This document shows, one piece after another, positions 37,873-55,400 of a DNA stretch of 64,000 bases. Made by a program: the position numbers and the translations under genes. Origin of the DNA: Bacilli bacterium (GTDB lineage: Bacteria; Bacillota_I; Bacilli_A; ML615J-28; CAG-313). Position 1 is the stretch's first letter, and each line of letters begins with the position of its first letter. Below the pieces are notes generated by a model that did no database searches, had not been told where the DNA came from, and saw only the letters and a program-made list of their open reading frames with translations. Where the stretch lies: assembly GCA_045119035.1 (NCBI GenBank), contig JBGVCU010000057.1:37238-101237 (forward strand), in the 5' to 3' direction.

Positions 37873-37905
37873 AAGAGACACAGTAAAAATGTGTTTCTTT
37901 TTTGT
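37873..37905 (+). terminator. Rho-independent terminator
   Basis: GAGACACA-GTAAAAA-TGTGTTTC (one G-U pair) followed by TTTTTT. Confidence 0.5.
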
Positions 37906-39516: not shown

Positions 39517-39556
39517 AAGTACCAAAATACAAATAGTCTGTATTTTGGTACTTTGT
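39517..39556 (+). terminator. Rho-independent terminator (possibly leaky, since the next gene starts 24 bp later)
   Basis: GTACCAAAATACA-AATAGTC-TGTATTTTGGTAC followed by TTTGTTTTT. Confidence 0.55.
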
Positions 39557-39579: not shown

Positions 39580-42500
39580 ATGAAAAGAAAAATTTGGATT
39601 ATTGTTATAGCGGTTGTTATTTTAGCAGTTATCGTATTTGCAATTACTGGTTCAAAAACAGATGCTCCAAATATTAACTTAGATAATACTGAGTTAGATT
39701 TGACTTTTTCTGCAACAGATGAATCATATTTAAAATACAAAGAAGATAATAAAAATTTACCAATCGCAAATCAAGAATTTATTATTTTTCCAGAAGATTT
39801 AACTAGTTCAGAAGTAGAGTTTAATTCAACTAATGTTGAAAATCATCCTGAACTTAAAGAAGTATTCCACTGGGAAAAGAATTCTACATCCACAATTTCA
39901 TTTGTTTTAGATGATAATAATGTTGAAACACATTTAGCTAAAAAACTATATGTTATTGAAATTGAATACTATTCTTTAGTAGATTCAATTATTGATATTG
40001 AATTTGGATTAGAAATAAATGGAAAAACTCCATTCTTTGAAGCTTCTCAAATCAACTTAACAACTCTATGGAAAATGAGTGGAGAAGTAAGTGTTGACCG
40101 TTATGGTAATGATGTTAATATGTCTCAAGATGTATATAGATCATGGCAAACAGCTGTACTTCAAGATTCAACTAGACTTGCTAAAGAAGGATTAATTTTT
40201 GCTTTAGAAGAAGGAGATGAAATCTCTTTAACAAAAATTAATGGAGAAGTAAAAATTGGTAGAATTATTGTGAGACCAATTGAAAAACATGTTTCATATG
40301 AACAATATATTGGAAATAACACAGTTAAAAATACTGAAGCTATTAGATATGAAGCAGAACAAATGCTTAATAAAAGCAACACAACAATCAATATGAGTAC
40401 AAGTAGAGAAGTTGGTGTTGAACCATTTGATGTTAAAAATTTAAGACTTAATATCATTGGTGAAGGTTCATGGGGATCTTCAGGAGAATTTATTACTTGG
40501 GAAGTAGAAGTGCCTGAGGATGGTTATTATAACCTTGCGTTTAAAGTAAAACAATCAACTGAAAACACAACATCATATCGTACATTATATGTAAATGGAG
40601 AAATTCCATTTGAAGAAGCAAAACATTTACCATTCTCATATACATCTGAATGGACAAACGTACCTATTCAAGGAATTGATGGTACTAAATATGCTATTAA
40701 ATTAAATGCAGGAAAAAATGAAATTAGATTAGAAGTTGATAGTACATTATATCATTCTATTTCTGAGAAATTAAGCTCAATTACTGCTGAAATGAATGAA
40801 ATGGGTCTAGATATTACTAAATATACAAACGGTAATACATCAAAAGGTATTGACTGGGATATTGAAGAAAACTTCCCTGATATGAAACCTAAAATTCAAA
40901 AATGGGTTACTGAATTAAATTTAGTAATTGATACTTATAGAAAAATTTCAGGATTTAATAAAACTACAACATTATCACAAGATTTAGGTACAGCAGTACA
41001 AAAATTAGAAAAAATCATTGCTGATATTGAAGAATTGCCAAGAAGACTTTCACTTTTATCAGAAGGTTCTTCATGTGCTGCCCAACTTGTTGCAGGACAA
41101 ATGGATTCGGTTTTAACTCAAGGATTAGTTGTTGATAGTTTCTATATTTACTCAAATGAAGAAGATTTACCTAAACCAACAGGAAACTTTATTCGTTCAT
41201 TATGGGTAGGAATTCAAAGATTCTTTATTTCATTTTTTGATGATTCTTATAAGACAGATTCATCAAATGATGATGAATTAATCGTTTGGGTTAATAGATC
41301 TAGACAATATGCGGATGTTATTCAAAAATTAGCTGATGCTGCAACTGCAAATGGTGAATTACCATTCCAAGTTAAAGTATCTCTAATGAGTGATGATGGA
41401 AAATTAATTTTAGCAAACTCTGCAAACCAACAACCAGATGTAGCTTTAGGGGTTTCTGCTTGGATTCCAAATGACTATGGTATGCGTGGTATGTTAACAG
41501 ATTTAAGACAATTTGATGGATATTTAGATTTAATTAGTGAATTTAATCCTGAACAATTAGTTCCAATGACATATGATGATCATCTATACGGATTACCAGA
41601 AACAGAAAACTTCTATGTTTTATTCTATCGTACAGATACTTTAAATAAATTAGGTTTAACTATTCCAAATACATGGGATGATGTAATCGATATGTTACCT
41701 GTTTTAAAACGTTATGATATGGATTTCTATATTCCACTTTCAAACGGATCATCATCAAAATCATTTGATACAACTGCACCATTTATTTATCAATTTGAAG
41801 GTGAAGTATATTCATACAACAATAAAGGTATTTTAACTGGTGGTTTAGAAAATGAACAAACAATTCAAGCTTTAGAATTTATTACAGATTTATACACTGA
41901 ATATGGATTACCTTACCAAGTATCAAGCTTCTTTAATGAATTTAGATACAATAGAATTCCTATTGGTATTGCTGATTTCTCAACATATTTAAATTTATTA
42001 AATGGTGCTCCAGAAATTCAAGGTTTATGGGATATTACTGTTGTTCCTGGAATTAAAGTAACAGATGGTTCTGGAAATTCTAGAGTTAACCGTTATATGC
42101 CTGGTGCTCAACAAGCCGGTGTAATTTTTGAAAAGAGCGAAAAACAACAAGAAGCATGGTATTTCTTAAGCTGGTGGATGAGTAAAGATACTCAATCTGA
42201 ATATGCTAGTACAATGGTTAATACTTTAGGTAAGAGATATTTATGGAATACAGGTAATATGGAAGCATTCAAAGAACTTGCTTGGAATGAAGATCATAAA
42301 AAAGTCATTATGGAACAATGGACTCATTTAAAAGAAGTTTCAAGAATTCCTGGATATTACATTGTAGAACGTGAAATTTCTAACTCATGGAATAAAGTAG
42401 TTTATAACGATGAAAACTTAAGAAGCACACTTAGTGATGCTATGATTAAAATTACAAAAGAAATAACTCGTAAAATGCAAGAATTTGGTTATGTTGATAG

Positions 42501-42585
42501 TAAAGGAAATGTAACAGATAAACAATATATAATTCCTTCAACAGAATCAATTAATAAATGGAAGGAGGGAAATAAAGATGAGTAG
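39580..42585 (+). CDS. TM-anchored 1010-aa protein: ~520-aa unknown N-terminal extracellular region fused to a family-1 SBP domain
   Basis: ATG after AAAGGAG. One N-terminal TM (IWIIVIAVVILAVIVFAI). C-terminal half carries SBP blocks (LANSANQQPDVALGVSAWIP ... NFYVLFYRTD ... W). Overlaps the next permease gene by 8 nt. Confidence 0.6.
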   Translation: MKRKIWIIVIAVVILAVIVFAITGSKTDAPNINLDNTELDLTFSATDESYLKYKEDNKNLPIANQEFIIFPEDLTSSEVEFNSTNVENHPELKEVFHWEKNSTSTISFVLDDNNVETHLAKKLYVIEIEYYSLVDSIIDIEFGLEINGKTPFFEASQINLTTLWKMSGEVSVDRYGNDVNMSQDVYRSWQTAVLQDSTRLAKEGLIFALEEGDEISLTKINGEVKIGRIIVRPIEKHVSYEQYIGNNTVKNTEAIRYEAEQMLNKSNTTINMSTSREVGVEPFDVKNLRLNIIGEGSWGSSGEFITWEVEVPEDGYYNLAFKVKQSTENTTSYRTLYVNGEIPFEEAKHLPFSYTSEWTNVPIQGIDGTKYAIKLNAGKNEIRLEVDSTLYHSISEKLSSITAEMNEMGLDITKYTNGNTSKGIDWDIEENFPDMKPKIQKWVTELNLVIDTYRKISGFNKTTTLSQDLGTAVQKLEKIIADIEELPRRLSLLSEGSSCAAQLVAGQMDSVLTQGLVVDSFYIYSNEEDLPKPTGNFIRSLWVGIQRFFISFFDDSYKTDSSNDDELIVWVNRSRQYADVIQKLADAATANGELPFQVKVSLMSDDGKLILANSANQQPDVALGVSAWIPNDYGMRGMLTDLRQFDGYLDLISEFNPEQLVPMTYDDHLYGLPETENFYVLFYRTDTLNKLGLTIPNTWDDVIDMLPVLKRYDMDFYIPLSNGSSSKSFDTTAPFIYQFEGEVYSYNNKGILTGGLENEQTIQALEFITDLYTEYGLPYQVSSFFNEFRYNRIPIGIADFSTYLNLLNGAPEIQGLWDITVVPGIKVTDGSGNSRVNRYMPGAQQAGVIFEKSEKQQEAWYFLSWWMSKDTQSEYASTMVNTLGKRYLWNTGNMEAFKELAWNEDHKKVIMEQWTHLKEVSRIPGYYIVEREISNSWNKVVYNDENLRSTLSDAMIKITKEITRKMQEFGYVDSKGNVTDKQYIIPSTESINKWKEGNKDE

Positions 42586-43513
42586 TAAAGGTAAAATAGC
42601 AACTTTTATCGAAAAAGAGAAAAAAGCATTTAAAACCGATGATAAATCAGCGTATTTATTTGCGGCTCCATATATCATCTTATTTACAATTTTCATTATT
42701 CTTCCAACAATTTATGCGATTTATTTGTCATTTACAAGTTTTAATATGGTTGGAAAACCTAAATGGAATACTTTCCAAAACTATATTTTCTTACTTACAA
42801 GTGACTCTGAATTCATGAAATATATATTACCTAATACAATTAAATTCAGTTTAATTGTTGGACCAGGTGGATATATTTTATCATTTATGATGGCTTGGTG
42901 TTTATCACAATTACCTCATAGATTAAGAACAGTTTTAGCTGTAATTCTTTATTCTCCATCACTTACTGCCGGTATTACAATGAGTGTTGTATGGAAGGTA
43001 GTATTTGCGGGGGACTCAAGTGGTTACCTAAACTATATTCTGATGGAACTTGGATTGATTGTTGAGCCTATTGCTTTCTTACAATCCGAAAAATACTTAT
43101 TTACAATAATGGTTATTGTTACCCTTTGGGGTAGTATGGGTGTTGGGTTCTTAGCAATGCTTGGAGGTATCCTAAATGTAAACCCAGAACTATACGAAGC
43201 GGCTTACTTAGATGGTATGCATAGCCGTTGGCAAGAAATCATTTATATTACAATTCCACAAATGAAATCTTCAATGTTATTCGGTGCGGTAATGACAATT
43301 GTAGGAACATTTAGTTCCGGTGCAATTGGGGTACAACTATCCGGTTCAAACCCAACACCAAACTATTCAGGTTCATTAATTCTGAACCATATTGAAGACT
43401 ACGGATTTATTAGATACGACATGGGATATGCGGCTGCCTTATCTGTTGTATTATTAATAATTATCTATGTATTTAGTAAAGTGGCTAATGCTTTATTTAA
43501 GGAGAAAGACTAA
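42578..43513 (+). CDS. Sugar ABC transporter permease (MalF/UgpA-like)
   Basis: Six TM helices; EAA loop EAAYLDGMHSRWQEIIYITIPQ. Confidence 0.85.
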   Translation: MSSKGKIATFIEKEKKAFKTDDKSAYLFAAPYIILFTIFIILPTIYAIYLSFTSFNMVGKPKWNTFQNYIFLLTSDSEFMKYILPNTIKFSLIVGPGGYILSFMMAWCLSQLPHRLRTVLAVILYSPSLTAGITMSVVWKVVFAGDSSGYLNYILMELGLIVEPIAFLQSEKYLFTIMVIVTLWGSMGVGFLAMLGGILNVNPELYEAAYLDGMHSRWQEIIYITIPQMKSSMLFGAVMTIVGTFSSGAIGVQLSGSNPTPNYSGSLILNHIEDYGFIRYDMGYAAALSVVLLIIIYVFSKVANALFKEKD

Positions 43514-43515
43514 TT

Positions 43516-44400
43516 ATGGCATTTAGAAAATCAAAATATAGTGTTACAAAAGTCAATCCTAAATCATTTAATTTAGGTCAATTACCGTTCTTACTTGCGG
43601 TATTACCAATTGCAGCCTTTATGCTTTTACCACTATTATACATATTTAATCATGCATTTAAACCGTTTGATGAATTACTAGAATATCCTCCAAAATTCTT
43701 TGTAAGTCGTCCTACATTTAACAACTTTAAAGAATTATTTAAAGCATCTTCAACAACAGCAATTCCAGTATCAAGATATTTATTTAATAGTATCGTTATT
43801 ACAATTGTTGTAGTTGTATTATCAATTATTTTAAGTTCAATGGCAGGTTTTGCTTTATCAAAACTAAAATTCCATGTAAATAAAGTTATTAATGAAGTTA
43901 ATACTATTGCCTTAATGTTCGTAGGAGTTGCTGTTACAATTCCTAAGTATATGATTATTGAAAAACTTGGTTTAGTTGATAATTTCTTAGTTCATATTAT
44001 TCCGGTCTTAGCAGTTCCAGTCGGATTATTCTTGATTAAACAGACAATCGATGATATTCCTAATGAACTAATCGAAGCAGCAAAAATGGATGGTGCTTCA
44101 AGCTTTAGAATTTATTGGTCAATCATTCTTCCAATGATTAAACCAGCTATGGCAACTGTTGCAATTCTTTCTTTCCAAACAGTATGGAATGATGCAAGTA
44201 TTTCTGCAACATATTTAAACGATGATACACTGAAGACCTTCGCATACTACGTATCGACCCTATCTTCAGCATCAAACTCTACAGCAGGAATGGGAATGTC
44301 TGCTGCAGCAACACTTATTATGTTCTTACCTAACTTAATTATCTTTATTATTTTACAAGGTAAAGTTATGAGCACAATGGCTCATTCAGGTATTAAATAG
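43516..44400 (+). CDS. Sugar ABC transporter permease (MalG/UgpE-like)
   Basis: EAA loop EAAKMDGASSFRIYWSIILPMIKP; six TM helices. Confidence 0.85.
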   Translation: MAFRKSKYSVTKVNPKSFNLGQLPFLLAVLPIAAFMLLPLLYIFNHAFKPFDELLEYPPKFFVSRPTFNNFKELFKASSTTAIPVSRYLFNSIVITIVVVVLSIILSSMAGFALSKLKFHVNKVINEVNTIALMFVGVAVTIPKYMIIEKLGLVDNFLVHIIPVLAVPVGLFLIKQTIDDIPNELIEAAKMDGASSFRIYWSIILPMIKPAMATVAILSFQTVWNDASISATYLNDDTLKTFAYYVSTLSSASNSTAGMGMSAAATLIMFLPNLIIFIILQGKVMSTMAHSGIK

Positions 44401-44408: not shown

Positions 44409-46469
44409 ATGAAAAGATCAGTATTTAAGAAAATTACAATATTAGTATTTATTTGTTTATTTTGTATTTTAGGTATCTCATCTACAAAAATTACAGCATC
44501 AGCTGCCTCAAACGTAAATGGTGTTCCTTATACAACTTATACAAAAAGTGTTCACGGGCTATCTCCTACGCAAACTGCATACATTCCTGTAGGTGTTATT
44601 TGTGAAACACACAATTTATCTAGTGCATCTGATATCTACTTTTATGAAAATAGCCTATATATAGCAGATACAGGTAACAAACGTATAATTCAATCGGACA
44701 TTAAAGGAAATATTATTAAAGAGTATAAACACGAAGAATTCATGTCTCCTACTGGTGTATTCGTAACAGAAGAAAGTGTTTATATCGCAGATAAAGCAGC
44801 AAAAACTGTATTTAAAGTAAGTCATGACTTAGATGCAACTGGAGCTGCAAATATCGAACTTCGTGTTGTTAAACCTTCTAAATCACCAATCTTTGGTAAC
44901 CACGATTTTGTTCCTACAAAAGTTGCGGTAAAATCAAATAGAAATATTTATGTTATTGGTGAAGGTTCAACAAACGGTATTATTGAATTCAACTATGATG
45001 GTGAATTCTTAGGATACTTAGGTATCAACAGTGTAGAATTATCATTAAGATCAATTATTTTTGGTTTCTTACTAAAAGATTTTGATGGTGCTTCAGATAA
45101 ACCTAGTGCTCCAACAAACGTTGCTTTAGGTTTAAAAGGTTCAATCCTTTCTACTAACATAAACGTTGCTGAAACATTCAAACGTTTAAACATTACAGGT
45201 ATTAATACTTTACAAGCAACAACTACATATCCAACAGTAACTTTATCTGATATTATTATGAATGATGAAGGATATATCTATATGGTTGGTGAACAAGGTG
45301 AAGTATATGAATACGACAGTAAAGGTAATTTATTATTCACATTTAATACATATGACTTTGCTCAAACAAAAGCTTTAGGTTTAACTTCTAAACCTTCTGG
45401 TATTTGTTTAGATAATGATGGAAATATTTATATTTTAGATTCAAGTTATACAAATATTCAAATTTATCAAAAAACAGTATTCGTTGACTTAGTTCACAAA
45501 GCTGTTACTCTATACAATGAAGGTAGATATGAAGAATCTAAACCTTATTGGCTAGAAATCCAAAGACAAAATACTTCATTCTCTTTAGCTCATACAGCCC
45601 TAGGTTCTACACTTGCTAAAGAAGGAAAATACGAAGAAGCATTAAAAGAATTTGAACTTGCAAAAGATTACAATGGATATTCACAAGCATATTGGGAAAT
45701 CCGTAATGCTGCAATTCAATCAAATTTACCATTATGGTTAGGTATTATTTTTGGATCAATTATTTTACTTGTAGTTGCTTCAAAAGTATACAAAAAATCT
45801 CCAGCATTTGATGGTGTTAAAGCTGGTATTGCTAAATTTAAATCTAAGAAATTAGTAAGCGAACTTTTATATGGATTTAACATATTTAAGAAACCATCTG
45901 ATACATTCTATGGTATCAAAAAACAAGGTAAAGCAAGCTATTTATCAGGAATTATCTTACTTGCTTTATTCGTAATTATTTATTTAGTTGATATTTATTG
46001 TTCTGGATTCTTATTTAGATCAGAAGCAGGACTTTCATATGTTTCAGTACAACTTGCGTTAGTACTTGGACTATTTATGTTATTTGTTGTTGTTAACTAC
46101 TTCGTAAGTACATTAAGTGATGGTGAAGGTTGGTTTAGAGATATCTTTATTTCTTCAGCTTATGCTTTAATGCCTTTCATTGTATTAACATTACCAATGA
46201 CATTCTTATCACATTTCTTAACTTATAACGAAGGATTTATTGTTGAACTTTATACAACATTTACAATGGGATGGACATTATTCTTATTAATTTATGCTAT
46301 TAAAGAAGTTCATAATTATTCATTTAAGAAAACTTTAGGAAGTGTATTAATTATTATTTTTGGAATGATTATTTTAGTCTTAATCGGATTATTAGTATAT
46401 TCATTCATGGGTCAATTAATTGACTTCTTAGTAAGTATTGTTAAGGAGGTGTTCTATCGTGCGTTCTAA
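44409..46469 (+). CDS. Secreted NHL-type beta-propeller plus TPR protein with a C-terminal multi-TM (Yip1-like) domain
   Basis: Signal peptide; repeated YIAD(T/K) ... K(R/T)(I/V) blades; TPR-like helix pair (YNEGRYEESKPYW ... GKYEEALKEF); 5-6 C-terminal TM helices. Confidence 0.5.
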   Translation: MKRSVFKKITILVFICLFCILGISSTKITASAASNVNGVPYTTYTKSVHGLSPTQTAYIPVGVICETHNLSSASDIYFYENSLYIADTGNKRIIQSDIKGNIIKEYKHEEFMSPTGVFVTEESVYIADKAAKTVFKVSHDLDATGAANIELRVVKPSKSPIFGNHDFVPTKVAVKSNRNIYVIGEGSTNGIIEFNYDGEFLGYLGINSVELSLRSIIFGFLLKDFDGASDKPSAPTNVALGLKGSILSTNINVAETFKRLNITGINTLQATTTYPTVTLSDIIMNDEGYIYMVGEQGEVYEYDSKGNLLFTFNTYDFAQTKALGLTSKPSGICLDNDGNIYILDSSYTNIQIYQKTVFVDLVHKAVTLYNEGRYEESKPYWLEIQRQNTSFSLAHTALGSTLAKEGKYEEALKEFELAKDYNGYSQAYWEIRNAAIQSNLPLWLGIIFGSIILLVVASKVYKKSPAFDGVKAGIAKFKSKKLVSELLYGFNIFKKPSDTFYGIKKQGKASYLSGIILLALFVIIYLVDIYCSGFLFRSEAGLSYVSVQLALVLGLFMLFVVVNYFVSTLSDGEGWFRDIFISSAYALMPFIVLTLPMTFLSHFLTYNEGFIVELYTTFTMGWTLFLLIYAIKEVHNYSFKKTLGSVLIIIFGMIILVLIGLLVYSFMGQLIDFLVSIVKEVFYRAF

Positions 46470-48720
46470 AACAAAGATAATCATCTCAAGTATTTTATTA
46501 CTTTTAATTGTAACTGCTATTAGCGTTTCTATTTACGCTAGTATCGACGAAAGTGATGTTGAACTTGCTGGATTTAATAATATTAGTGAATTCTATCCAT
46601 CAAATAGACATACATATCAAGAAGATTATAAAACTGCAACAAGTGTTGCTCCTGAGGTTTTAGGAGACAAAGTAAAAGAAATTTCTACTGAAATTGGTAA
46701 AGTTGAAGTTGATGAAGAAACATTAGCTTTCAAGTTTACAAACAATAGAGGTTATACTTGGGCTAGTACAGTAGATTATACAAAAGAAGATGCAGAACTT
46801 AATTCAAAAAATAAAAATAGAGTTAGATCTGCGATAATTTTAAATGTATATGATACTACAAGTGCATCATATAATATAAGAGAATATTATATGTCAGATG
46901 CACAAAGCGTTACTGTTTCTGAAATTACAAATGGATTTAGTGCTAAAGTTAAATACTATGAAAAAGCTAAAAAATATCTATTAGATATTACAATTACAAT
47001 CAATGTTACATTTACAAATGATGGAATTAATGTTTCAATTCCAAGTGAAACAATTATTGAAAATGGTGATTTCTTAGTAAATAATATTTTAGTATATCCT
47101 TATTTTGGAAGTGTTAAAGAAAATCAAGTTCCTGGATATATCTTTGTTCCAGATGGTGTAGGTGCTCTTGTAAGATATAAAAAAGCATCAACTGTTTCTC
47201 TAACAAATTATGAAAAATATATTTATGGTAAAGATTTATCATACTCAGCATCTTCAAATTTATTAACTGAAGATGTTCAAGATTCAAAAATTTATGCTCC
47301 TGTATACGGTTTTGTACATGGTGTAAATCAAAATGCTATGTTTGCTGTTATTGAAGATGGTGCTGAATACGGAAGCGTTAATGTAGAATTCTCTACAAGC
47401 TCAATGAAATATTCTACAGTTTATCCACGTTTTACATATCGTAGAACATATTCTCAACCAATGGATAAATCAGGAAATACAATTACTTTATTACAAAAAG
47501 ACAAAAATGAATTTGATATCAATATTAAATTCTTATCATTAGAAAATGAACAAGCTAACTATGTAGGTATGGCAAATGCTTATAACGATTACCTACAAAG
47601 TACTCAAAATCTTTCAAATAAACAAAACAATTCATCAATTAGTCTAAGAGTTGATACAATTGGTCTTGAAAGAACAGAAGGTGTATTATTTGATAAGAAA
47701 ATCGTTATGACAACTTTCAAAGAATATAAAGAAATCTTAGATACTTTAACTAACTCTGGTGTAAGTAATATTACTGGTGTATTTAAAGGATTTACAAACA
47801 ATGGTGTATCTTGGGCTGCTCCAAATTATGAAAAAGTTTCAAAGAAATTAGGATCACAAAATAGTTTAGAAGACTTAGTTGAAAACTACAATGTTTACTT
47901 TGAAACAGAATATCAAAAAGCAACATCACGTGTTGGTGGATATAATTCATATTTTGATTTAGCTAAAAAAATTAACGATCAACGTTATGCGTATACATAC
48001 GGTGATTATGATGCTTATTTACTTACTCACAGTAAAACTGTAGAAGTATTAAAAGAAAGTGTTGAAAAACTAGAAAAAGCAACAATTAAAAATTTATATA
48101 TCCAATCTATGGGAAGCTTATTATATTCAGATTTTGCAAATGATGTTTCATTAACAGAAGCTCAAGCTATTTATAATAATGCTTTAAAAGAAGTAAAAGG
48201 TAATGTTGCATTATCAAGTGTATATGCTTATCTTTGGGGTTCAATTGATGAATATTTCGATTTCCCATTATATAGCAGTCAATATTTAACATTTGATGAT
48301 ACTGTTCCATTCCTTGCAATTACATTATCTAATTCAATGAATCTATATTCTTCATATGCTAACTTCTATGCATATCCAAGAGAAGAATTATTAAGATTAG
48401 TTGATTATAATGTATATCCTTCATTTATTGTTACAAATGAATCTTCAAGTTTACTTGAAAAAACAAATTTAAATAATATCTATTCTTCAAAATTTGAAGA
48501 CCTAGCAAACGCTGTTACAACTTACTATCAATTTGTTAATACTCCACTTAAAAATGTAATTGGAGCAAGTCTTGTTTCAAGAACAATTCCATCAAATGGT
48601 ATTGTAATTAATAAATATAGTAATAACGTTGAAATTATTATTAACTATACAAACGTAAAACAAGTAGTTAATGGTGTTACAGTTGAAGCTATGAATTATC
48701 ATGTAGGAGGTGTAAACTAA
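46459..48720 (+). CDS. Signal-anchored 760-aa extracellular protein of unknown function
   Basis: GTG start 9 nt after AAGGAGG, overlapping the previous gene by 11 nt. The stop overlaps the next ATG by 1 nt (TAATG), so it is embedded in the transporter operon. Confidence 0.5.
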   Translation: MRSKTKIIISSILLLLIVTAISVSIYASIDESDVELAGFNNISEFYPSNRHTYQEDYKTATSVAPEVLGDKVKEISTEIGKVEVDEETLAFKFTNNRGYTWASTVDYTKEDAELNSKNKNRVRSAIILNVYDTTSASYNIREYYMSDAQSVTVSEITNGFSAKVKYYEKAKKYLLDITITINVTFTNDGINVSIPSETIIENGDFLVNNILVYPYFGSVKENQVPGYIFVPDGVGALVRYKKASTVSLTNYEKYIYGKDLSYSASSNLLTEDVQDSKIYAPVYGFVHGVNQNAMFAVIEDGAEYGSVNVEFSTSSMKYSTVYPRFTYRRTYSQPMDKSGNTITLLQKDKNEFDINIKFLSLENEQANYVGMANAYNDYLQSTQNLSNKQNNSSISLRVDTIGLERTEGVLFDKKIVMTTFKEYKEILDTLTNSGVSNITGVFKGFTNNGVSWAAPNYEKVSKKLGSQNSLEDLVENYNVYFETEYQKATSRVGGYNSYFDLAKKINDQRYAYTYGDYDAYLLTHSKTVEVLKESVEKLEKATIKNLYIQSMGSLLYSDFANDVSLTEAQAIYNNALKEVKGNVALSSVYAYLWGSIDEYFDFPLYSSQYLTFDDTVPFLAITLSNSMNLYSSYANFYAYPREELLRLVDYNVYPSFIVTNESSSLLEKTNLNNIYSSKFEDLANAVTTYYQFVNTPLKNVIGASLVSRTIPSNGIVINKYSNNVEIIINYTNVKQVVNGVTVEAMNYHVGGVN

Positions 48721-49655
48721 TGGAAAATAAGAATTTAGATTCTCAAGTTAGTCAAATTGAACAACCTCGTAAAATGAAAAAAATGAGTAAGAAAACTAGA
48801 GATACTTTAGTTGGATATTCATTTATCGGTATTTGGATTATTGGTTTCTTAGTATTTATGTTAATCCCTGTTATTAACTCTGTAATTTATAGTTTCAGTG
48901 TTGTTAAAATTGAAAGTACAGGTATTAAGATTACTCCAAACGGAACTAAAAACTTCTTAAATATTTTCCAAGCTCCAGAAGGTCTTGCTTTTACCGAAGC
49001 ATTACTTGGATTTGCTAAAGAATTAATCGTTCAAGTTCCAATTATTATTGTATTCTCAATTATTATTGCTATCTTATTAAATCAACCAATTAAATGTCGC
49101 GGTTTATTTAGAGCAGTTTTCTTCTTACCAGTTATTATTTCATCTGGTCCAGTTATTAATGAATTAGTAACTCAAGGTGCAGGTGGAGCAAGTTTAATGT
49201 CTTCAATGGGATTTACAACAATGTTAGAAGACTTATTAGGACCAACTCTTGCTGAACCTATTACAGGACTATTCTCTGATATTATTATTATATTCTGGTT
49301 CTCAGGAGTACAAATTTTAATTATGCTTGCTGGTATTCAAAAAATGGATAAACAAGTATATGAAGCAGCTCACGTTGATGGTGCTGGAAGCTGGGAAATT
49401 TTCTGGAAAATTACTTTACCATCACTAAAAGCTTTAATTTTCGTTAGTACAATTTATACAATTGTATTATTATCAACATTCTCTAACAATGAAGTAATTG
49501 TTCAAATTAAGAATAATATGTTTGCAACAGATGCTAACTTCGGTTATGGTTTCGCAAGTGCAATGTCATGGATTTACATGCTTGTTATGGCGTTATTCAT
49601 TATTCTTGTTTGTGTTGTGTTACTTCCTAGAGATAAGAAAAGAGGTGCTAAATAA
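48720..49655 (+). CDS. Sugar ABC transporter permease (second pair, MalF-like)
   Basis: EAA loop EAAHVDGAGSWEIFWKITLPSLK; six TM helices. Confidence 0.85.
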   Translation: MENKNLDSQVSQIEQPRKMKKMSKKTRDTLVGYSFIGIWIIGFLVFMLIPVINSVIYSFSVVKIESTGIKITPNGTKNFLNIFQAPEGLAFTEALLGFAKELIVQVPIIIVFSIIIAILLNQPIKCRGLFRAVFFLPVIISSGPVINELVTQGAGGASLMSSMGFTTMLEDLLGPTLAEPITGLFSDIIIIFWFSGVQILIMLAGIQKMDKQVYEAAHVDGAGSWEIFWKITLPSLKALIFVSTIYTIVLLSTFSNNEVIVQIKNNMFATDANFGYGFASAMSWIYMLVMALFIILVCVVLLPRDKKRGAK

Positions 49656-50728
49656 TGGTATTACTTACTTTCGCAATTATTTTAGTCATCGCCCTTATTA
49701 TTTCATTAATTAGTTATGTAATTAAAGAATTTAAAAAACCAAAAGGTGAAAGATTTGATGTAAAAGGTCAAATCAACCAAAAGATTAATACATTAAAAAA
49801 TCTTAATAAACAAAAAGTTAAAAACTTCTTATTTGGAACTAACTTTAGACGTGGTTGGTTACCAAGTGCTGTTGTATATGTTTTATTAATTAGTATTGGA
49901 TTTGTATACTTATATCCAGTATTATATATGATTTCAAACAGTTTCAAAAGTTTAAATGACATTGTTAACCCATCAGTTAGTTGGGTTCCAACACAATTTT
50001 ATTTAGATAACTTCTCAAGAGCATTTAGAGTATTAAACTTCTTTAAAGTATTATTAAAGAGTTTACCAGTTACTTTACTTCCTGCAGTATTACAAACAGG
50101 TATTTGTTCTGTAATTGGTTATGGATTTGCTAAATTTGAATTCAAAGGAAAATTTGTGGTTTTAGTACTAGTTATTTTAGCATTCATTATTCCTTCTCAA
50201 ATTTATATGATTCCTAAATATGTATTATTCTATGATATGGGATTCTTCGCAAAAGGTAAAGAAAATATGCAATTCTTAACAATTGCACTTCCTGCATTAT
50301 TAGGACAAGGATTAAACTCATCAATCTTTATTCTAATTTTCTATCAATTCTTTAAGATGATTCCATATTCATTAAATGAAGCAGCAGAAATTGATGGTTG
50401 CGGTCCATATAGAACATTCTTCACTATCGGTGTTCCTCTTGCAGGTCCTGCATTCTTAATCTGCTTCTTATTTGGATTTGTATGGTATTGGAATGAAACA
50501 TATTTCTTAAGTATGTTTGCTCCTGAATTCCCTAACTTACAAATTAAATTATCATACTTTGTATCAGAATATACTGAACTTTACAAAGATGATCAAATGT
50601 TAAAATTAAACGAAGGTGTAAGACTAGCTGCAACACTTCTAATCTTACTTCCAATGTTAATAATTTATCTATTCTTACAAAAATGGTTCGTTGAAGGTAT
50701 CGAACGTTCAGGTATTACAGGTGAATAA
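49655..50728 (+). CDS. Sugar ABC transporter permease (second pair, MalG-like)
   Basis: EAA loop EAAEIDGCGPYRTFFTIGVPLAGP; six TM helices. Confidence 0.85.
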   Translation: MVLLTFAIILVIALIISLISYVIKEFKKPKGERFDVKGQINQKINTLKNLNKQKVKNFLFGTNFRRGWLPSAVVYVLLISIGFVYLYPVLYMISNSFKSLNDIVNPSVSWVPTQFYLDNFSRAFRVLNFFKVLLKSLPVTLLPAVLQTGICSVIGYGFAKFEFKGKFVVLVLVILAFIIPSQIYMIPKYVLFYDMGFFAKGKENMQFLTIALPALLGQGLNSSIFILIFYQFFKMIPYSLNEAAEIDGCGPYRTFFTIGVPLAGPAFLICFLFGFVWYWNETYFLSMFAPEFPNLQIKLSYFVSEYTELYKDDQMLKLNEGVRLAATLLILLPMLIIYLFLQKWFVEGIERSGITGE

Positions 50729-50729: not shown

Positions 50730-52106
50730 ATGTTTAAAAATTTTAAAAAATTATTATTAATTTTATTCTTATTCTTATTTTCATTTGCAATTGTAAGTTG
50801 TGATGATCCAACACCAGGTGGTGAAAATCCTGGAGAAGATGAAATTCCTCCAGTTAATACAAAAGATTATCGTACAAATGTTAAAGAAAACATTGATCCA
50901 GTTTTATTAGAGGAACTTGAAGGAGGCTTCAGGTTCTTCTGGGAAACTGCCAATACAAAAGAAGGTTCATCAGGATATGGATTAATTCCAGATAGATTTA
51001 ATACATATACTAATGCACCTGGAACAGTTGCTTCTATTGCTTCAATTGGATATGGTTTATCTGCAATTCCTATTGGAATTGAATACGGATGGATTACTAA
51101 AGAAGAAGGATATGATAGAGCACTTAAATCATTACAAACTCTTTGGAATTTAAAAACAACTCATGGATTCTATTATCACATGGTAAATAGAATGACAGGT
51201 TTAAGAGAATGGAGTAGTGAAGTTTCAGTTATTGATACAGCAATTTGTGTAAATGGTGCATTAACTGTTGGTCAATATTTCGGTGGAGAAATTTTAAAAC
51301 TTGCTCATGATATTTATAAAAGAGTTGAATGGGATTGGTATTATGATGAAGGTGCAAATAAATTCTACATGGGTTATACACCTGAAAGAGGATTTAGTGG
51401 TCACTGGAATGAATATGCAGAACAATTAATGGTTTATGTATTAGCAGCTGGAAGCCCTACATATAAAGTAGGAAAACAAGCTTACAATTTTATGAAATTC
51501 AGCAGTAAAAAAGCTGATGCAACAGAAAACTACGGTTCATTCTATATGACATGGACAGGTAGTCTATTTACTTATCAATTCTCACATGCATGGATCGATT
51601 TTAGAAATATCGAAGATGCAAATGGTGTAGATTGGTTTACAAACAGTGTTAATGCTTCAAAAGCATCAATAGCATATGCAGTTAAAAATTCAAAAACATA
51701 TAAAACATATAGTAATGTTTCTTGGGGAGCAACAGCATGTGATGGTCCAGGTGGATACTGTGGTCCTTATGGATCAGGTCCATCAAGCGGAAATGCCCAT
51801 GTTTCTGATGGAACAATTCCTCCATGCGGAGCTATTGGATCTATCGTATTTACTCCAACAGAATCAATTGCAGCTATGAATAACTATCGTACATATGATA
51901 GATTATGGTCAAAATATGGATTTAAAGATGCATATAACCTAGATGTTTCAGAAGCTGGATGGTATGGAAATGATATCATCGGTATTGATAAAGGAATCAG
52001 CGTTCTTATGATTGAAAACTATATTTCAGACTTTATTTGGAATATGTTTATGGATAATATGTATGTACAAGCTGGTTTAAATGAATTAGGTTTTAAAGAA
52101 GTTTAG
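50730..52106 (+). CDS. Lipoprotein (alpha/alpha)6 glycoside-hydrolase-like enzyme (extracellular paralogue of 35635-36900; GH144-like endo-beta-glucanase candidate)
   Basis: ATG 1 nt after the previous stop; lipobox IVSC; Pro/Gly/Glu-rich linker; collinear with the cytoplasmic paralogue. Confidence 0.55.
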   Translation: MFKNFKKLLLILFLFLFSFAIVSCDDPTPGGENPGEDEIPPVNTKDYRTNVKENIDPVLLEELEGGFRFFWETANTKEGSSGYGLIPDRFNTYTNAPGTVASIASIGYGLSAIPIGIEYGWITKEEGYDRALKSLQTLWNLKTTHGFYYHMVNRMTGLREWSSEVSVIDTAICVNGALTVGQYFGGEILKLAHDIYKRVEWDWYYDEGANKFYMGYTPERGFSGHWNEYAEQLMVYVLAAGSPTYKVGKQAYNFMKFSSKKADATENYGSFYMTWTGSLFTYQFSHAWIDFRNIEDANGVDWFTNSVNASKASIAYAVKNSKTYKTYSNVSWGATACDGPGGYCGPYGSGPSSGNAHVSDGTIPPCGAIGSIVFTPTESIAAMNNYRTYDRLWSKYGFKDAYNLDVSEAGWYGNDIIGIDKGISVLMIENYISDFIWNMFMDNMYVQAGLNELGFKEV

Positions 52107-52115: not shown

Positions 52116-55100
52116 ATGAAGATTAAAAACAATTTACAAACAATAAATATAGAATCAGCTGGTTTAGAATTCAAATTCTTACCATCTGGGGACATTAATA
52201 CAATTAAATTTAACAATAACAATATTTCTATGTATAGAGGTACTACATTAGATGGTACACTAGGAAATTTTTATTTAAAAACAATGGATGATGATGGTAT
52301 TGTTTCATACACTAAATTAATTGGTGTTGACAGTCCATCAAGCTTTGGAGTTAAAGATAATAAAGCAATATATTCAGGAACATATGAAGGAATCGAATAT
52401 AAATTAGTTTTAACAGTTAAACATCACACATGGTTTTGGACATTACAATTAACTGGTAATAAAAATGCATCAGTATTTTATGTCCAAGATATATCTTTAA
52501 ACTCGCCATCTGCAAATGAAGCTTACAATTGTCAATATTTAGATCATCAAGTATTTGAAACAGAATCTGGATATAACATTGTAACAAAACAAAATCAAGG
52601 TGAACCTTTACTTATTCAATCAGGATCATTAACCAAAAATATTTCTTATGCTACTGATGGATTTGATTTCTTTGGAAATGCTTATAAATTATATAACGTT
52701 CCAACAGCAATCTCAGAAACTGGTTTACCATCAAAGATATATCAATACGAATTTGCTTGTCATTGTTTTGAAACAGAAAACTATGATTTATCAAATGGAG
52801 TTGAAGTAATTTTCTATAGTAGTTTATTAGAAAATTATCATACTTTAGGTAATCAAATTAATGTTGATGATATAAAAAATCAATATCATGAATTAGATCA
52901 TAATATTGAAATAGATAATCTAAATAAAGTTAATTTAAAAGTAGATTATCAAAATACTTATCCTTATGTTTCACTTAAAGGAAAAGTTTATAATGAACTT
53001 AAAAAAGGGCGTATAGATGAAGAATACCTTGATGATGAATTAGTATCTTGGTTTGATAAATCTGGAGTTCACTATGTTGATTCTGTAAAAGAATTATATG
53101 TAGAACGTCCTCATGGAATGGTTCATATATCAAATGGTTTAAAACCAATTGATGATAAGACATTCAGTACTACTTGTTGGATTTTTGGTGTATTTAATTC
53201 ACATATTTGTTATGGTAATACTAATTTTAATAAAATGTTAACTCATAATAAATCAGCATTAAATGTATTAAAAACAAGTGGGGAAAGAATTTTTGTTAAA
53301 GTTGATAAAGAATATTATTTATTAAATCTTCCTGGTATGTATACAATGGATGTTAATACAAGTACTTGGTATTACCAAATTAAAAATGATATCCTAAAAA
53401 TTACTACTTCAGTAAGATATGAAACAGGATTAGTTCAAACTAATATTGAATCACTTAAAAATAAAAAATATGATTTCATTATCTCTGATAACTTAATGAT
53501 GGGTTCAGATGAAAATGCGCATCCTATTAGTTATACAACACTTGATTCAAAAGTAATCTTTAAATTTGCTGATAATACATTTTCTCATGATCGTTATCCA
53601 GATTTAGAATTCGTTGTAGATACTAAAACTGATGGTACTTATAAGTATGGATCAGATGAAGTATTCTTTGAAGATAAAAAATCATATGGTAACCCAATTT
53701 TAACAATTAGCTATAAAAAAGCCTCTCATATCGAATTAATTCACTCAGTGTCAAAAGATGATACATTCTATGACATTAATGAATTACAAAACGAATATAA
53801 TCAAAAGTTTAATGAAAACATTAATCATTTTAAATTAATTTCTAAAGATAAAGATTTTGAAAAATTCAACCATATCGTTAAATGGTATACACAAAATGCA
53901 TTAATTCACTATGCTTCTCCTCATGGATTAGAACAATATGGTGGAGCTGCTTGGGGAACAAGAGACGTATGTCAAGGTCCTATTGAATTATTTGCAACAC
54001 TAAAAAGATATGATTTAGTTAAATCAACAATTAAATATATCTACTCTAGACAATTTGTTGATACACATGAATGGCCTCAATGGTTCATGTTTGACAATTA
54101 CCGCAATATTCAAGCTTGGGAATCTCATGGAGATGTTATTGTATGGCCTTTAAGAACTGTGGCATATTACTTAGAACAAACAAATGATTTATCAATTTTA
54201 GATGAAGTTGTTCCATATAACAACCGTTATGACGGAGGATTTGTTGAAGAAGACACAATCTTAAATCATATTAAAAATGAAGTAAAATCAATTGTTGAAA
54301 GTATGGTAGATGATTACAACTTACCAAGCTACGGTGGTGGTGACTGGGATGATACATTACAACCTGCTAATAAATCATTAACAAATAAATTAGTTAGTGG
54401 TTGGACAGTACTTTTATTAATTGATGCGTTAAAGAAATTCAATGAATTTACAAATGATGAATTTAAAGATTTATTAGATAAATTAACTGCTTCATATAAT
54501 AAATATTTATTGATTGATGATATCCCATCAGGATTTGTATATTTTGGAAATGAAACACCAGAACTTATGTTACATCCAAGAGATAATAAAACTGGTATTA
54601 ATTATCGTTTACTTCCAATTACAAGAGGAATGATTGCTGAACACTACGATAAGAAAAATATTTCAAAATATTTAGAAATTATTGATAAAAACTTAATGCA
54701 TCCAGATGGTGTGCATTTAATGAACACAACAGTTAAATACCAAGGTGGAACACCAAAACTATTTGTTAGAGCTGAAACTGCTACAAACTTTGGACGTGAA
54801 ATTGGTCTACAATATGTACATGCTCATATTAGATATATTGAAGCAATGACAAAAATTGGAGAAGCAGATAGAGCATTTAAAGGACTTAATGTAATTTGTC
54901 CTGTAAACATTAAAAAACATGTTCCTAATGCTTTACCTCGTCAGGCTAACGTATATTTCTCTTCATCAGATGGAAACTTCAGAACTCGTTATCAAGCTGA
55001 TAAAGAATTTGATTTATTAAGAACTGGAGAAAGAGAAGTAAAAGGTGGATGGAGACTTTATTCAAGTGGTCCTGGTATTTATCTAAATCAATTAATTTCT

Positions 55101-55361
55101 AACTTCTTAGGAATTAAAACATATCAAAACGATTTAGTTATTGATCCTGTAATGCCTAAAAAATTAAAAGGATCAAAACTAGAATATGTTTACAATGGAA
55201 AACTTTTAAAAGTTGAATATCAAAAAACAAGTAAAATTACATCTGTAATTCTAAATGGAGAAGAAATTGTTAATATTCATAAAAATAACAAATATCGTCC
55301 ATCAGGAATTAGAATTGATTTCAATTTATTAAAAGATGTTAATGAATTAATTGTTAAATAA
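52116..55361 (+). CDS. Cytoplasmic GH94-like glycoside phosphorylase (size and blocks resemble 1,2-beta-oligoglucan phosphorylases)
   Basis: 1081 aa; no signal peptide; central (alpha/alpha)6 region with GLEQYGGAAWGTRDVCQGP and HGDVIVWPLR blocks. Confidence 0.55.
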   Translation: MKIKNNLQTINIESAGLEFKFLPSGDINTIKFNNNNISMYRGTTLDGTLGNFYLKTMDDDGIVSYTKLIGVDSPSSFGVKDNKAIYSGTYEGIEYKLVLTVKHHTWFWTLQLTGNKNASVFYVQDISLNSPSANEAYNCQYLDHQVFETESGYNIVTKQNQGEPLLIQSGSLTKNISYATDGFDFFGNAYKLYNVPTAISETGLPSKIYQYEFACHCFETENYDLSNGVEVIFYSSLLENYHTLGNQINVDDIKNQYHELDHNIEIDNLNKVNLKVDYQNTYPYVSLKGKVYNELKKGRIDEEYLDDELVSWFDKSGVHYVDSVKELYVERPHGMVHISNGLKPIDDKTFSTTCWIFGVFNSHICYGNTNFNKMLTHNKSALNVLKTSGERIFVKVDKEYYLLNLPGMYTMDVNTSTWYYQIKNDILKITTSVRYETGLVQTNIESLKNKKYDFIISDNLMMGSDENAHPISYTTLDSKVIFKFADNTFSHDRYPDLEFVVDTKTDGTYKYGSDEVFFEDKKSYGNPILTISYKKASHIELIHSVSKDDTFYDINELQNEYNQKFNENINHFKLISKDKDFEKFNHIVKWYTQNALIHYASPHGLEQYGGAAWGTRDVCQGPIELFATLKRYDLVKSTIKYIYSRQFVDTHEWPQWFMFDNYRNIQAWESHGDVIVWPLRTVAYYLEQTNDLSILDEVVPYNNRYDGGFVEEDTILNHIKNEVKSIVESMVDDYNLPSYGGGDWDDTLQPANKSLTNKLVSGWTVLLLIDALKKFNEFTNDEFKDLLDKLTASYNKYLLIDDIPSGFVYFGNETPELMLHPRDNKTGINYRLLPITRGMIAEHYDKKNISKYLEIIDKNLMHPDGVHLMNTTVKYQGGTPKLFVRAETATNFGREIGLQYVHAHIRYIEAMTKIGEADRAFKGLNVICPVNIKKHVPNALPRQANVYFSSSDGNFRTRYQADKEFDLLRTGEREVKGGWRLYSSGPGIYLNQLISNFLGIKTYQNDLVIDPVMPKKLKGSKLEYVYNGKLLKVEYQKTSKITSVILNGEEIVNIHKNNKYRPSGIRIDFNLLKDVNELIVK

Positions 55362-55367: not shown

Positions 55368-55400
55368 AAAACTTGGTAAGTCAAATTACCAAGTTTTTTA
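55368..55400 (+). terminator. Rho-independent terminator ending the glucan operon
   Basis: AAACTTGGTAA-GTCAAA-TTACCAAGTTT followed by TTTT. Confidence 0.6.

Follow-up and report, generated by a model that had tools for sequence, protein, structure and literature searches.

The two large genes at positions 44409-46469 and 46459-48720 of the window, the whole 64-kb stretch of DNA analysed here, constitute the fixed centre of a seven- or eight-gene ABC-importer cassette, and not, as first assumed, an insertion into one transporter. The first gene encodes a protein of 686 aa with an NHL propeller, TPR-like helices, and a Yip1 domain (Yip1 protein hereafter), and the second a DUF5696 protein of 753 aa. 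We propose, giving this reading an even chance of being correct, that the two genes encode an obligatory accessory pair at the centre of a double CUT1 ABC importer of seven genes in fixed order, in the form of an extracellular glycan-handling and scaffolding subcomplex. The pair looks like an undescribed type of nutrient-importer accessory.

Gene content and translational coupling of the locus

All features described below lie on the + strand. At the upstream end, a large lipoprotein of ~1258 aa counted from M27 (31713-35489; ORF opening at 31635, lipobox LVACG) consists of repeated modules of ~130 aa, with the motif [IVL]KPND(N/D)xxxE at residues 587, 715, 844, 976, and 1227, and matches CBM_35_2 weakly in a domain search (E 0.0098). 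Homologues occur ahead of the block in roughly half of the related loci sampled, and the lipoprotein is probably the surface glycan-binding protein of the locus, that is, context rather than core block. The next genes encode a GH144-type endo-beta-1,2-glucanase paralogue (35635-36900; PF10091, E 6.6e-56), which has neither a hydrophobic N-terminus nor a signal peptide and is therefore predicted to be cytoplasmic, and a LacI-family regulator (36904-37872), whose translation displays an HTH and a sugar-binding fold. The identical gene on a metagenome contig (L044) gives LacI and Peripla_BP Pfam matches. A terminator-like hairpin (37871-37901) is found directly 3' of the regulator gene.

The small lipoprotein SBP (38051-39502; ORF opening at 38009, lipobox LVSCG, SBP_bac_1 E 4e-14) has 483 aa, a product also obtained in an independent gene call. 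It is separated from the gene of the long SBP by a hairpin of 15-17 bp followed by a T-run (39517-39553), which is probably an attenuator or an mRNA stabiliser. The long SBP (39580-42585, 1001 aa) is anchored by an N-terminal TM helix (residues 14-32), which is followed by an extension of ~560 aa and by the SBP domain at the C-terminus (SBP_bac_1/8, residues 605-887). The extension contains a weak CBM35-like module (CBM_35 E 0.019; PDB 5x7g E 0.003); the CBM_35 matches of the orthologues are faint, and the extension is conserved out to Paenibacillus and Butyrivibrio.

Permease pair A consists of the MalF-like A1 with six TM helices (42578-43513; EAAYLDG in the EAA loop) and the MalG-like A2 (43516-44400; BPD_transp_1 E 1e-18, EAA motif at residue 187). 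Pair B, on the other side of the two central genes, consists of B1 (48720-49655; EAA at residue 215) and B2 (49655-50728; EAA at residue 242), the latter with seven hydrophobic segments, including an extra TM helix at the N-terminus. BPD_transp_1 and the EAA-x3-G motif, which characterise CUT1 membrane subunits, are present in all four permeases, and SBP_bac_1, which characterises CUT1 binding proteins, in both the small SBP and the C-terminal domain of the long SBP. Judged from these genes, the cassette holds two complete permease dimers and two SBPs. No ABC_tran ATPase was found in the operon or among the scanned large ORFs of the window. An ATPase gene is usually missing from the operons of CUT1 systems with a shared MsmK-type ATPase, and an ATPase of this kind presumably serves this importer; in the Paenibacillus cassette, a ugpC-like ATPase gene is located immediately upstream. 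Downstream of pair B, the locus encodes a GH144-type endo-beta-1,2-glucanase (50730-52106; PF10091 E 3.8e-65, 458-aa gene call), predicted to be an extracellular lipoprotein from its lipobox (IVSCD), and a GH94 1,2-beta-oligoglucan phosphorylase (52116-55361; SOGP_N, SOGP_2nd, Glyco_hydro_94, and SOGP_4th), predicted to be cytoplasmic. A second terminator-like hairpin (55368-55397) lies directly 3' of the GH94 gene.

The frames and junctions of the two central genes agree with those of the initial annotation, including the coordinates of the 686-aa ORF. The second ORF opens at TTG 46438, giving 760 aa; AGGAGG at 46444-46449 stands before GTG 46459, and the 753-aa product from this start is also found in independent gene calls on identical metagenome contigs. 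The GTG start overlaps by 11 nt with the upstream gene, whose stop is at 46469, and TAATG at 48718-48722 couples the DUF5696 gene to permease B1. From the long SBP gene (39580) through the GH94 gene (55361), neighbouring genes always either overlap or stand no more than 9 nt apart, mostly with an SD-like motif before the start, and a hairpin scan of the + strand found no strong terminator-like hairpin between 39553 and 55368. At a local GC content of ~28-31%, ORFs of 686 and 753 codons cannot have originated by chance.

Predicted architecture of the two central proteins

In the AF2 model of the Yip1 protein (pLDDT 84.6), a signal peptide is followed by a six-bladed NHL propeller (residues 40-355), TPR-like helices (357-438), a TM helix (440-463), cytoplasmic helices (466-506), and a five-TM Yip1 domain (511-685), i.e., 1+5 TM helices overall. 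This layout confirms the propeller and the Yip1-like C-terminus of 5-6 TM helices of the earlier reading and is consistent with its TPR domain. The Yip1 match (PF04893, residues 491-658) reaches 49.4 bits against a gathering score of 28.6, and the NHL match (PF01436) 35.8 bits against a cut-off of 20, while TPR_2, with 24.6 bits, stays just under its cut-off of 27; residues 357-438 form five antiparallel helices in the model, consistent with ~2.5 TPR-like pairs. The modelled helices of the Yip1 bundle (511-531, 542-570, 576-600, 606-635, and 639-685) can be set beside hydropathy peaks at 509, 544, 579, 610, and 645. Foldseek matches the propeller to the NHL domains of TRIM71, TRIM2, and Brat and to the sensor domain of PknD (E 7.5e-15 to 1e-9, TM ~0.75 on the target). 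The propeller/TPR ectodomain is predicted to be outside the cell.

The second protein had been described as signal-anchored and devoid of a recognisable motif. An N-terminal TM anchor (residues 7-25) is indeed present, with the body predicted to be extracellular, but the protein matches the full Pfam profile DUF5696 (PF18952; 484.2 bits vs 25.6, profile positions 4-612 of 612, E 8e-145), as do all 47 aligned homologues. The family comprises ~5,700 sequence clusters. The predicted body combines a mutarotase-like beta-sandwich, a (beta/alpha)8 barrel, and a C-terminal beta-sandwich, which is the three-domain arrangement of GH129, and the GH129 fold is assigned with high confidence from the model. 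At the sequence level, none of the 47 members matches a GH Pfam family even at E<=10, and a profile search against the PDB yields only E 0.002 over residues 71-150. The view that the protein is not an ordinary GH or SBP thus stands, since no annotated family of either type was matched.

Among 248 family members, position 201 is E/D in 96% and position 614 D/E in 96%, while E404 (94%) and D500 (67%) are lost in distant members; no carboxylate pair is strictly invariant across the 248. The near-invariant polar residues are E201, D/E614, N635, and N729, the first three of which are retained down to ~20% identity, and Gly, Pro, Asn, and Tyr make up most of the strictly invariant positions. To our knowledge, the fold relatives in GH129, GH101, GH36, and GH31 are all retaining alpha-glycosidases, and the enzymes flanking the block are beta-glucan enzymes (GH144/GH94; GH16/GH161) or GH43, so that main-chain cleavage by DUF5696 would not fit readily.

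It is conceivable, if rather unlikely, that the Yip1 protein and the DUF5696 protein, both non-catalytic and the latter a pseudo-enzyme retaining only the GH129 scaffold, act as an assembly or stability factor, which would clamp or chaperone the two permease dimers into one supercomplex with the long SBP, without contacting the substrate. A barrel without a strictly invariant acid pair, the loss of E404 and D500, the Gly/Pro/Asn/Tyr character of the invariant positions, and the mismatch between an alpha-glycosidase-type fold and beta-glucan loci would all suit such a role, whereas the persistence of E201, D/E614, and N635 to ~20% identity would not, and a three-domain enzyme fold of 700 residues appears costly for a mere clamp. 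The precedent of YknW, which modulates assembly of the YknXYZ pump, and the indifference of the block to the CAZymes around it can be added in its favour; against this, DUF5696 is the fastest-evolving core component, far above the permeases that it would clamp.

Conservation of the cassette and the proposed mechanism

About 50 loci from some ten lineages were sampled from the ~5,700 DUF5696 clusters, all recruited by similarity to DUF5696 or to the Yip1 protein. The order of the block is the long CBM35-like SBP, pair A, the Yip1 protein, DUF5696, and pair B, usually together with the small lipoprotein SBP. In the DUF5696-seeded loci, the Yip1 gene is directly upstream in 45/45 informative cases and pair B directly downstream in 46/46, which supports the suggested link of the module to a CUT1 transporter. 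The order long SBP-A1-A2-Yip1-DUF5696 is found in all 40 informative loci (40/40), the small SBP gene immediately precedes that of the long SBP in 30/33, and the Yip1-seeded loci contain the same block in 3/3; the propeller protein was seen only in this block in the sampled loci, and not scattered in unrelated contexts. The carriers belong to Bacillota and Thermotogota (Acholeplasmatales, Haloplasmataceae, Alkalibacterium, Paenibacillus, Butyrivibrio, Defluviitaleaceae, Thermosipho, and Fervidobacterium) and include the cultured Butyrivibrio fibrisolvens and Paenibacillus cellulosilyticus.

The junction between the Yip1 and DUF5696 genes is tight in all loci examined, from an overlap of 8 nt, or of 11 nt in the window, to a gap of 25 nt. 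B1 and B2 are fused into one polypeptide in four lineages, which indicates that A and B are separate dimers. Divergence is fastest for DUF5696 and the small SBP, the latter being the fastest component, and slowest for pair A, with A1 the component best conserved between phyla (normalised score ~0.6), as one would expect for substrate-facing parts relative to a conserved engine. The initial annotation had asked whether DUF5696 orthologues always sit between permease pairs next to GH94/GH144-like genes. They do lie between the pairs, but the flanking enzymes differ, being GH144/GH94, GH16/GH161, GH43, or none. On a Paenibacillus plasmid, the neighbours of the block are LLM-class oxidoreductases, and no CAZyme occurs in the 12-kb flanks covered; this setting, like the lack of an invariant carboxylate pair, speaks against the accessory-pair proposal.

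The invariant order also bears on a quite unlikely alternative, namely that the long SBP and pair A form one ordinary CUT1 importer and the small SBP and pair B another, independent of each other and co-transcribed by chance with surface proteins that work separately, e.g., in glycan-particle adhesion or surface sensing, and are not physically coupled to the pores. Both pairs do look complete, with EAA loops present, two SBPs are encoded, and NHL propellers and TPRs serve generically as interaction modules. Shuffling or separation would then be expected across Thermotogota, Clostridia, Bacilli, and Mollicutes-like lineages, whereas the order never varies (40/40 to 46/46 loci) and, in the loci examined, the junctions overlap or almost abut. 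In Acholeplasma laidlawii PG-8A and A. oculi, adjacent GH94-LBP and GH161 clusters have been described, in which one cluster, encoding an SBP and ABC components, adjoins a two-permease, SBP-less cluster with GH16, GH3, and GH161 (Kuhaudomlarp et al. 2019, PMC6484121). This layout matches the beta-1,3-glucan versions of the cassette (L002, L003, L033, L036, and L037), and the A. laidlawii region is probably the same cassette; the passages on these clusters do not mention the Yip1 and DUF5696 genes. Its publication as two neighbouring clusters would favour two importers, yet the second lacks an SBP according to the authors, who considered that the two possibly share one (PMC6484121).

Returning to the accessory-pair proposal, the Yip1 helix bundle would form a scaffold in the membrane, in the manner of YknW for the YknXYZ pump, with the propeller/TPR ectodomain projecting outside. 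The scaffold would position the single-pass-anchored, GH129-fold DUF5696 protein above both permease dimers. The resulting ecto-complex may bind, and probably trim, oligo- or polysaccharide chains, here beta-1,2-glucan fragments released by the surface GH144, and deliver these to the SBPs and the pores; the oligosaccharides imported would be fairly long, and the cytoplasmic GH144 and the GH94 phosphorylase would finish the breakdown. That the locus has a GH144 on each side of the membrane, one extracellular and one cytoplasmic, favours such longer-chain import. Gene content and order, translational coupling, predicted topology and folds, and conservation across phyla are what we observe, and from them we infer physical association, glycan contact, catalysis, and a division of labour between the two pores.

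DUF5696 could instead be a real enzyme whose substrate is not the nutrient backbone. It might strip an alpha-linked or non-glucose decoration that the substrates have in common, clear access to the pores by acting on surface glycoconjugates of the cell itself, or synthesise an inducer as a transglycosylase. The entirely alpha-retaining fold class and the occurrence of the cassette with several unrelated backbone chemistries point in this direction, but no known decoration is common to beta-1,2-glucan, laminarin, and GH43 substrates, the wall-less Acholeplasmatales and the toga-bearing Thermotogota share no envelope target, and the rapid divergence of DUF5696 suits variable substrates better than a single common one. 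We consider this very unlikely.

A bolder and rather doubtful extension of the accessory-pair proposal is that the products of all seven genes assemble into a single supramolecular machine, the monoderm equivalent of SusCD-type cleave-and-import. The Yip1 scaffold would dock a new GH family (DUF5696) and the CBM-bearing tethered SBP over two ABC pores, mechanically coupling extracellular depolymerisation to the uptake of long oligosaccharides. If true, such a machine would be widespread, with thousands of DUF5696 clusters, and so far unrecognised.

Comparison with known systems

The catalytic positions of GH129 are D435/E478 in NagBb and D486/E517/E531 together with D202' in DagB. DUF5696 shares the fold of these enzymes (NagBb alpha-N-acetylgalactosaminidase, PDB 5WZN; GH129-like DagB 3,6-anhydro-D-galactosidase, PDB 5OPQ/8RZK) at 11-14% identity in structural alignments. 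It differs from them in being membrane-anchored, encoded inside a transporter operon, and without a sequence-level GH match at E<=10. The GH129 enzymes cleave alpha-linkages, whereas DUF5696 sits with beta-glucan loci, and GH129-like catalysis by DUF5696 is a candidate activity only.

YknW is not known to have a large ectodomain, whereas the Yip1 protein of the cassette has a 400-residue NHL/TPR ectodomain, an extra TM helix, and a constant DUF5696 partner. Both are Yip1-family membrane proteins encoded with an ABC transporter, YknW being the polytopic component that the four-component Bacillus transporter YknWXYZ requires and whose role is to modulate its assembly (PMC4887032). YknWXYZ belongs to the MacB-type exporters and includes a membrane fusion protein, while the cassette encodes BPD_transp_1 importer subunits and SBPs, and Pfam finds neither a MacB domain nor a membrane fusion protein in the block; the likeness is therefore an analogy only.

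As in Sus-like and Gram-positive PULs, genes for a glycan-binding lipoprotein and an endo-glycanase at the surface are combined with those for a transporter, a regulator, and exo-enzymes inside the cell. The locus has no TonB-dependent SusC/D pair, import being carried out by the ABC permeases, and described PULs have no counterpart to the Yip1/DUF5696 pair.

With canonical CUT1 importers of the MalEFGK2 type, including the beta-1,2-glucan transporter of Listeria innocua cited in PMC6484121, the cassette shares SBP_bac_1, MalF/MalG-like EAA-loop permeases, an operon without an ATPase gene, and co-located GH94 and endo-glucanases. Full-text literature searches found no match for DUF5696 or PF18952, in line with the description of the pair as an uncharacterised module, and this result, together with the same block across phyla, supports the claim that the arrangement is new for CUT1 transporters. 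It departs from the canonical CUT1 layout in its four permease genes and two SBPs in fixed order, in an SBP of ~1000 aa that is TM-anchored and bears a CBM35-like extension, and in the two additional membrane-anchored proteins between the permease pairs.

Organization of the Locus

The genes of the Yip1 protein (44409-46469, 686 aa; signal peptide, NHL, TPR, and Yip1 parts) and the DUF5696 protein (46459-48720) lie in a co-directional array with a GC content of ~28-31% in the window. The permeases A1 (42578-43513) and A2 (43516-44400) are located upstream of the two genes and the permeases B1 (48720-49655) and B2 (49655-50728) downstream, and all four have EAA loops. The DUF5696 ORF opens with a TTG at 46438, and its probable start is the GTG at 46459, which has an AGGAGG ahead of it at 46444-46449; on identical metagenome contigs, the gene was independently called with a 753-aa product. 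With this start, both couplings proposed in the initial annotation are reproduced, namely the 11-nt overlap with the Yip1 protein gene and the TAATG at 48718-48722 that connects the DUF5696 gene to B1. In the B2 permease, the usual six-helix MalG-like core is preceded by an additional N-terminal TM helix (residues 1-19) and ~50 linker residues.

Two substrate-binding proteins (SBPs) are encoded upstream of pair A: a small lipoprotein (38051-39502) and a long, TM-anchored protein of 1001 aa (39580-42585). In the latter, the SBP constitutes the C-terminal third, and the N-terminal extension carries a weak CBM35-like module, CBM_35 being faint also in the orthologues. From the long SBP (39580) to the GH94 1,2-β-oligoglucan phosphorylase gene ending at 55361, each junction is an overlap or a gap of at most 9 nt, and most have an SD-like motif ahead of them. 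On the + strand, terminator-like hairpins are found only at 37871-37901 (after LacI), 39517-39553 (after the small SBP), and 55368-55397 (after GH94). Because of these tight junctions and hairpin positions, the region 39.5-55.4 kb looks, from its sequence, like one transcription unit. The hairpin between the two SBP genes is a strong one, with 15-17 bp and a T-run; hairpins of this kind raise SBP expression relative to the downstream permeases.

An endo-β-1,2-glucanase of family GH144 (50730-52106), an extracellular lipoprotein, lies downstream of B2, while LacI and a second, cytoplasmic GH144 enzyme without a signal peptide (35635-36900) are encoded further upstream. The locus is a β-1,2-glucan utilization locus, and the presence of both cytoplasmic and extracellular GH144 paralogues implies the import of sophoro-oligosaccharides whose length calls for an internal endo-enzyme. 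Neither the operon nor the large ORFs scanned in the window include an ATPase gene.

A 1258-aa lipoprotein (31713-35489) contains at least five repeats of ~130 aa with the marker [IVL]KPND(N/D)xxxE. It matches no Pfam family and gives a weak CBM_35_2 match only. About half of the sampled loci have a homologue upstream of the cassette, and the protein is probably a surface glycan-capture protein. The window also encodes a GH81 β-1,3-glucanase with a surface Ig-like domain (23857-26718), followed by two large ORFs (26914-29277 and 29430-31538; 787 and 702 aa) and preceded by two others (19465-22623 and 4368-8678; 1052 and 1436 aa), all four without a Pfam match. An IS-type integrase (rve core with HTH_21) is found at 57134-57949, just downstream of the locus.

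Domains and Folds of the Two Proteins

The propeller and multi-TM Yip1-like regions originally read from the sequence of the Yip1 protein are recovered by both Pfam (Yip1, 49.4 bits; NHL, 35.8 bits) and the AF2 model (pLDDT 84.6), and the TPR match is sub-threshold in Pfam. The model consists, from the N-terminus, of a signal peptide, a six-bladed propeller (residues 40-355), five TPR-like helices (357-438), a TM helix (440-463), cytoplasmic helices (466-506), and a five-helix Yip1 bundle, the propeller and the TPR region being predicted to be extracellular. A Foldseek search with the propeller returned generic NHL propellers only (TRIM-NHL and the PknD sensor domain) and gave no functional clue. 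Two of the related loci, L051 (9189-11284, Butyrivibrio fibrisolvens pNP243) and L048 (2-1704), have one gene for the NHL/TPR ectodomain and another, overlapping one for the Yip1 membrane domain, so the protein can function as two separate chains. A short, Yip1-only variant had been suspected in L048 and was rejected, since the NHL part is a separate upstream gene, as in Butyrivibrio.

In the second protein, listed in the initial annotation with 760 aa and no recognizable motif, there is in fact a full-length match to Pfam DUF5696 (E 8e-145). It has a single N-terminal TM anchor, common to 44 of 47 homologues. Structure prediction and fold searches, as had been suggested for both proteins, assign it a glycosidase fold: the AF2 model is very confident (pLDDT 91.3, pTM 0.90), its Foldseek matches are DagB (5opq, E 3e-30) and NagBb (5wzn, E 1e-24), then GH101 and GH36, and two independent fold searches are concordant on a GH129-like fold. 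At the sequence level, no GH membership is seen: a Pfam scan at E<=10 assigned none of 47 DUF5696 members to a GH family, DUF5696 is without an NCBIfam model, and the PDB yielded only a profile match of E 0.002, over residues 71-150. The family is large; a profile search of 1.84 billion representatives counts 5,729 clusters at E<=1e-3 and, with the stricter cut-off of E<=1e-30, 3,601. No characterized member of the family is known, and full-text literature searches for DUF5696 and PF18952 returned no paper.

In an alignment of 248 DUF5696 sequences, the strictly conserved residues are mostly Gly and Pro, together with N635, N729, and Y368. The acids that are kept are E201 (96% E/D), D614 (96% D/E), and D649, while E404 and D500 are absent from distant members. 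A tentative likeness of YFD500LAKK to region II of GH13 was considered and dropped, as D500 is only 67% D/E. DagB forms its active site from barrel acids and an Asp that the partner monomer contributes from its N-domain (PMC5698469), and by analogy a composite E201/D614 catalytic site is conceivable in DUF5696. No acid pair is strictly invariant, which weakens a catalytic role, and we have also considered that the Yip1/DUF5696 pair is a non-catalytic assembly clamp, which we regard as rather unlikely.

Conservation and Genomic Context of the Cassette

The neighborhood was compared in ~50 related loci from ~ten lineages, found via similarity to DUF5696 or the Yip1 protein. The loci were obtained from DUF5696 homologues, species-representative genomes scanned with an alignment of 17 closer sequences, exact-protein contig look-ups, and tblastn against plasmids, and orthologues were assigned by phmmer. 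The order long SBP, A1, A2, Yip1 protein, DUF5696, B1, B2 is invariant in the sampled loci. The Yip1 protein is directly upstream of DUF5696 in 45/45 loci, the five-gene left arm is kept in 40/40, and pair B follows DUF5696 in 46/46, such that the position between permease pairs, about which the initial annotation had asked, is conserved. The small SBP directly precedes the long SBP in 30 of 33 loci, and all three loci seeded from the Yip1 protein have the cassette. The hosts include Acholeplasmatales, Mariniplasma, Peloplasma, Paracholeplasma, Haloplasmataceae, Alkalibacterium, Defluviitaleaceae, another Clostridia MAG, Thermosipho, and Fervidobacterium, as well as two cultured strains annotated in RefSeq (Butyrivibrio fibrisolvens D1, plasmid pNP243, and a Paenibacillus cellulosilyticus plasmid).

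In four lineages, B1 and B2 form a single, fused polypeptide of ~626 aa, and A and B are thus distinct dimers. The fusion is seen in L038, L039, L043, and L049/L050 (e.g., L050 12166-14046), in a sub-lineage to which Tenericutes bacterium MZ-XQ (CP017950) belongs. A reading as two independent importers accompanied by unrelated surface proteins is improbable in view of the order, which is invariant across phyla. That the Yip1/DUF5696 pair is an insertion into one transporter was rejected, as the composition is uniform, the order is constant across phyla, and pair B can be fused.

The components differ in divergence. In cross-phylum comparisons, the normalized bit scores relative to the window are 0.55-0.60 for pair A, 0.31-0.35 for pair B, ~0.25 for the long SBP, ~0.22 for the Yip1 protein, 0.14-0.17 for DUF5696, and ~0.07 for the small SBP. 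On these scores, the extracellular parts, DUF5696 above all, evolve fast like a specificity element, and pair A behaves like a conserved engine.

The cassette is in most loci located beside GH144/GH94, with or without GH3 (β-1,2-glucan). It is not always so, as the initial annotation had asked: Thermosipho has GH16 and an 839-bit match to solved GH161 phosphorylases (β-1,3-glucan), Defluviitaleaceae apparently has a β-1,3-glucan version (GH16 and a similar ~1045-aa protein without a Pfam match), Fervidobacterium has GH3 and a long protein, and Butyrivibrio has GH43. In the P. cellulosilyticus locus (L052, NZ_CP054609.1, 3756-25155), a ugpC-like ATPase gene lies directly upstream of the cassette and several LLM-class flavin oxidoreductases and extra SBPs downstream, with no CAZymes in the 12-kb flanks, a context suggestive of substrates other than plant or microbial glucans. 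An accessory specific for β-1,2-glucan was thus rejected, and since the flanking enzymes vary between loci, the cassette is a substrate-independent unit.

The regulatory genes differ as well. One locus (L035, 12982-18047) has, downstream of the cassette, an extra SBP, a histidine kinase, and an AraC-type response regulator, a typical sugar-sensing trio, in place of the LacI regulator of other loci. In Butyrivibrio, a histidine kinase and a response regulator are encoded upstream.

Proposed Mechanism and Comparison with Known Importers

The analysis establishes gene order, coupling, topology, folds, and conservation; physical association, glycan contact, and catalysis are inferences. It is likely that the Yip1/DUF5696 pair functions with the surrounding permeases. 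As to how, we put forward a proposal that could equally prove right or wrong, in which a scaffold and a glycan-handling ecto-complex sit on a double CUT1 importer. The Yip1 protein would be the membrane scaffold, in analogy to YknW, a modulator of YknXYZ ABC pump assembly (PMC4887032). Through physical association, it would hold over the two pores both the anchored, GH129-fold DUF5696 protein and the tethered SBP with its CBM; these would bind incoming chains, possibly trim them by catalysis, and then pass them on. The external and cytoplasmic GH144 enzymes together fit the uptake of fairly long oligosaccharides.

The main weakness of this proposal is the fold itself, since all its known relatives are α-glycosidases, whereas the loci target β-glucans or other substrates. 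DUF5696 might instead be an enzyme acting on a target other than the nutrient backbone, which we consider improbable. If the pair does couple extracellular processing to import, this would account for the uptake of long oligosaccharides by glycan degraders that are wall-less or Gram-positive, establish a new family of GHs or lectins, and provide the first import role for bacterial Yip1 proteins.

The ABC importer, Yip1 domain, NHL propeller, and GH129-like fold are of known kinds, and database labels already exist for the genes. What is undescribed is the architecture of seven genes in fixed order, as well as any import role of DUF5696 or Yip1. In line with the original remark that the arrangement had not been described for CUT1 transporters, the DUF5696/PF18952 searches and those for combinations of "YIP1 family protein", NHL, and SBP yielded nothing relevant.

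In Acholeplasma laidlawii and A. oculi, a GH161 cluster with two permeases and no SBP is reported to adjoin a GH94 cluster with SBP and ABC genes, and the two were suggested to share the SBP (PMC6484121). This pair of clusters is very probably the present cassette read as two, and the published puzzle of an A. laidlawii GH161 cluster with permeases and no SBP would be resolved if it were one half of the larger unit.

ABC sugar importers are held to be well understood, with one SBP, two membrane subunits, and two ATPases. The cassette, in contrast, combines four such subunits with a tethered SBP of 1000 residues and a pair of additional, obligatory membrane proteins, one of them with a glycosidase fold, and is conserved from Thermotogota to Bacillota.
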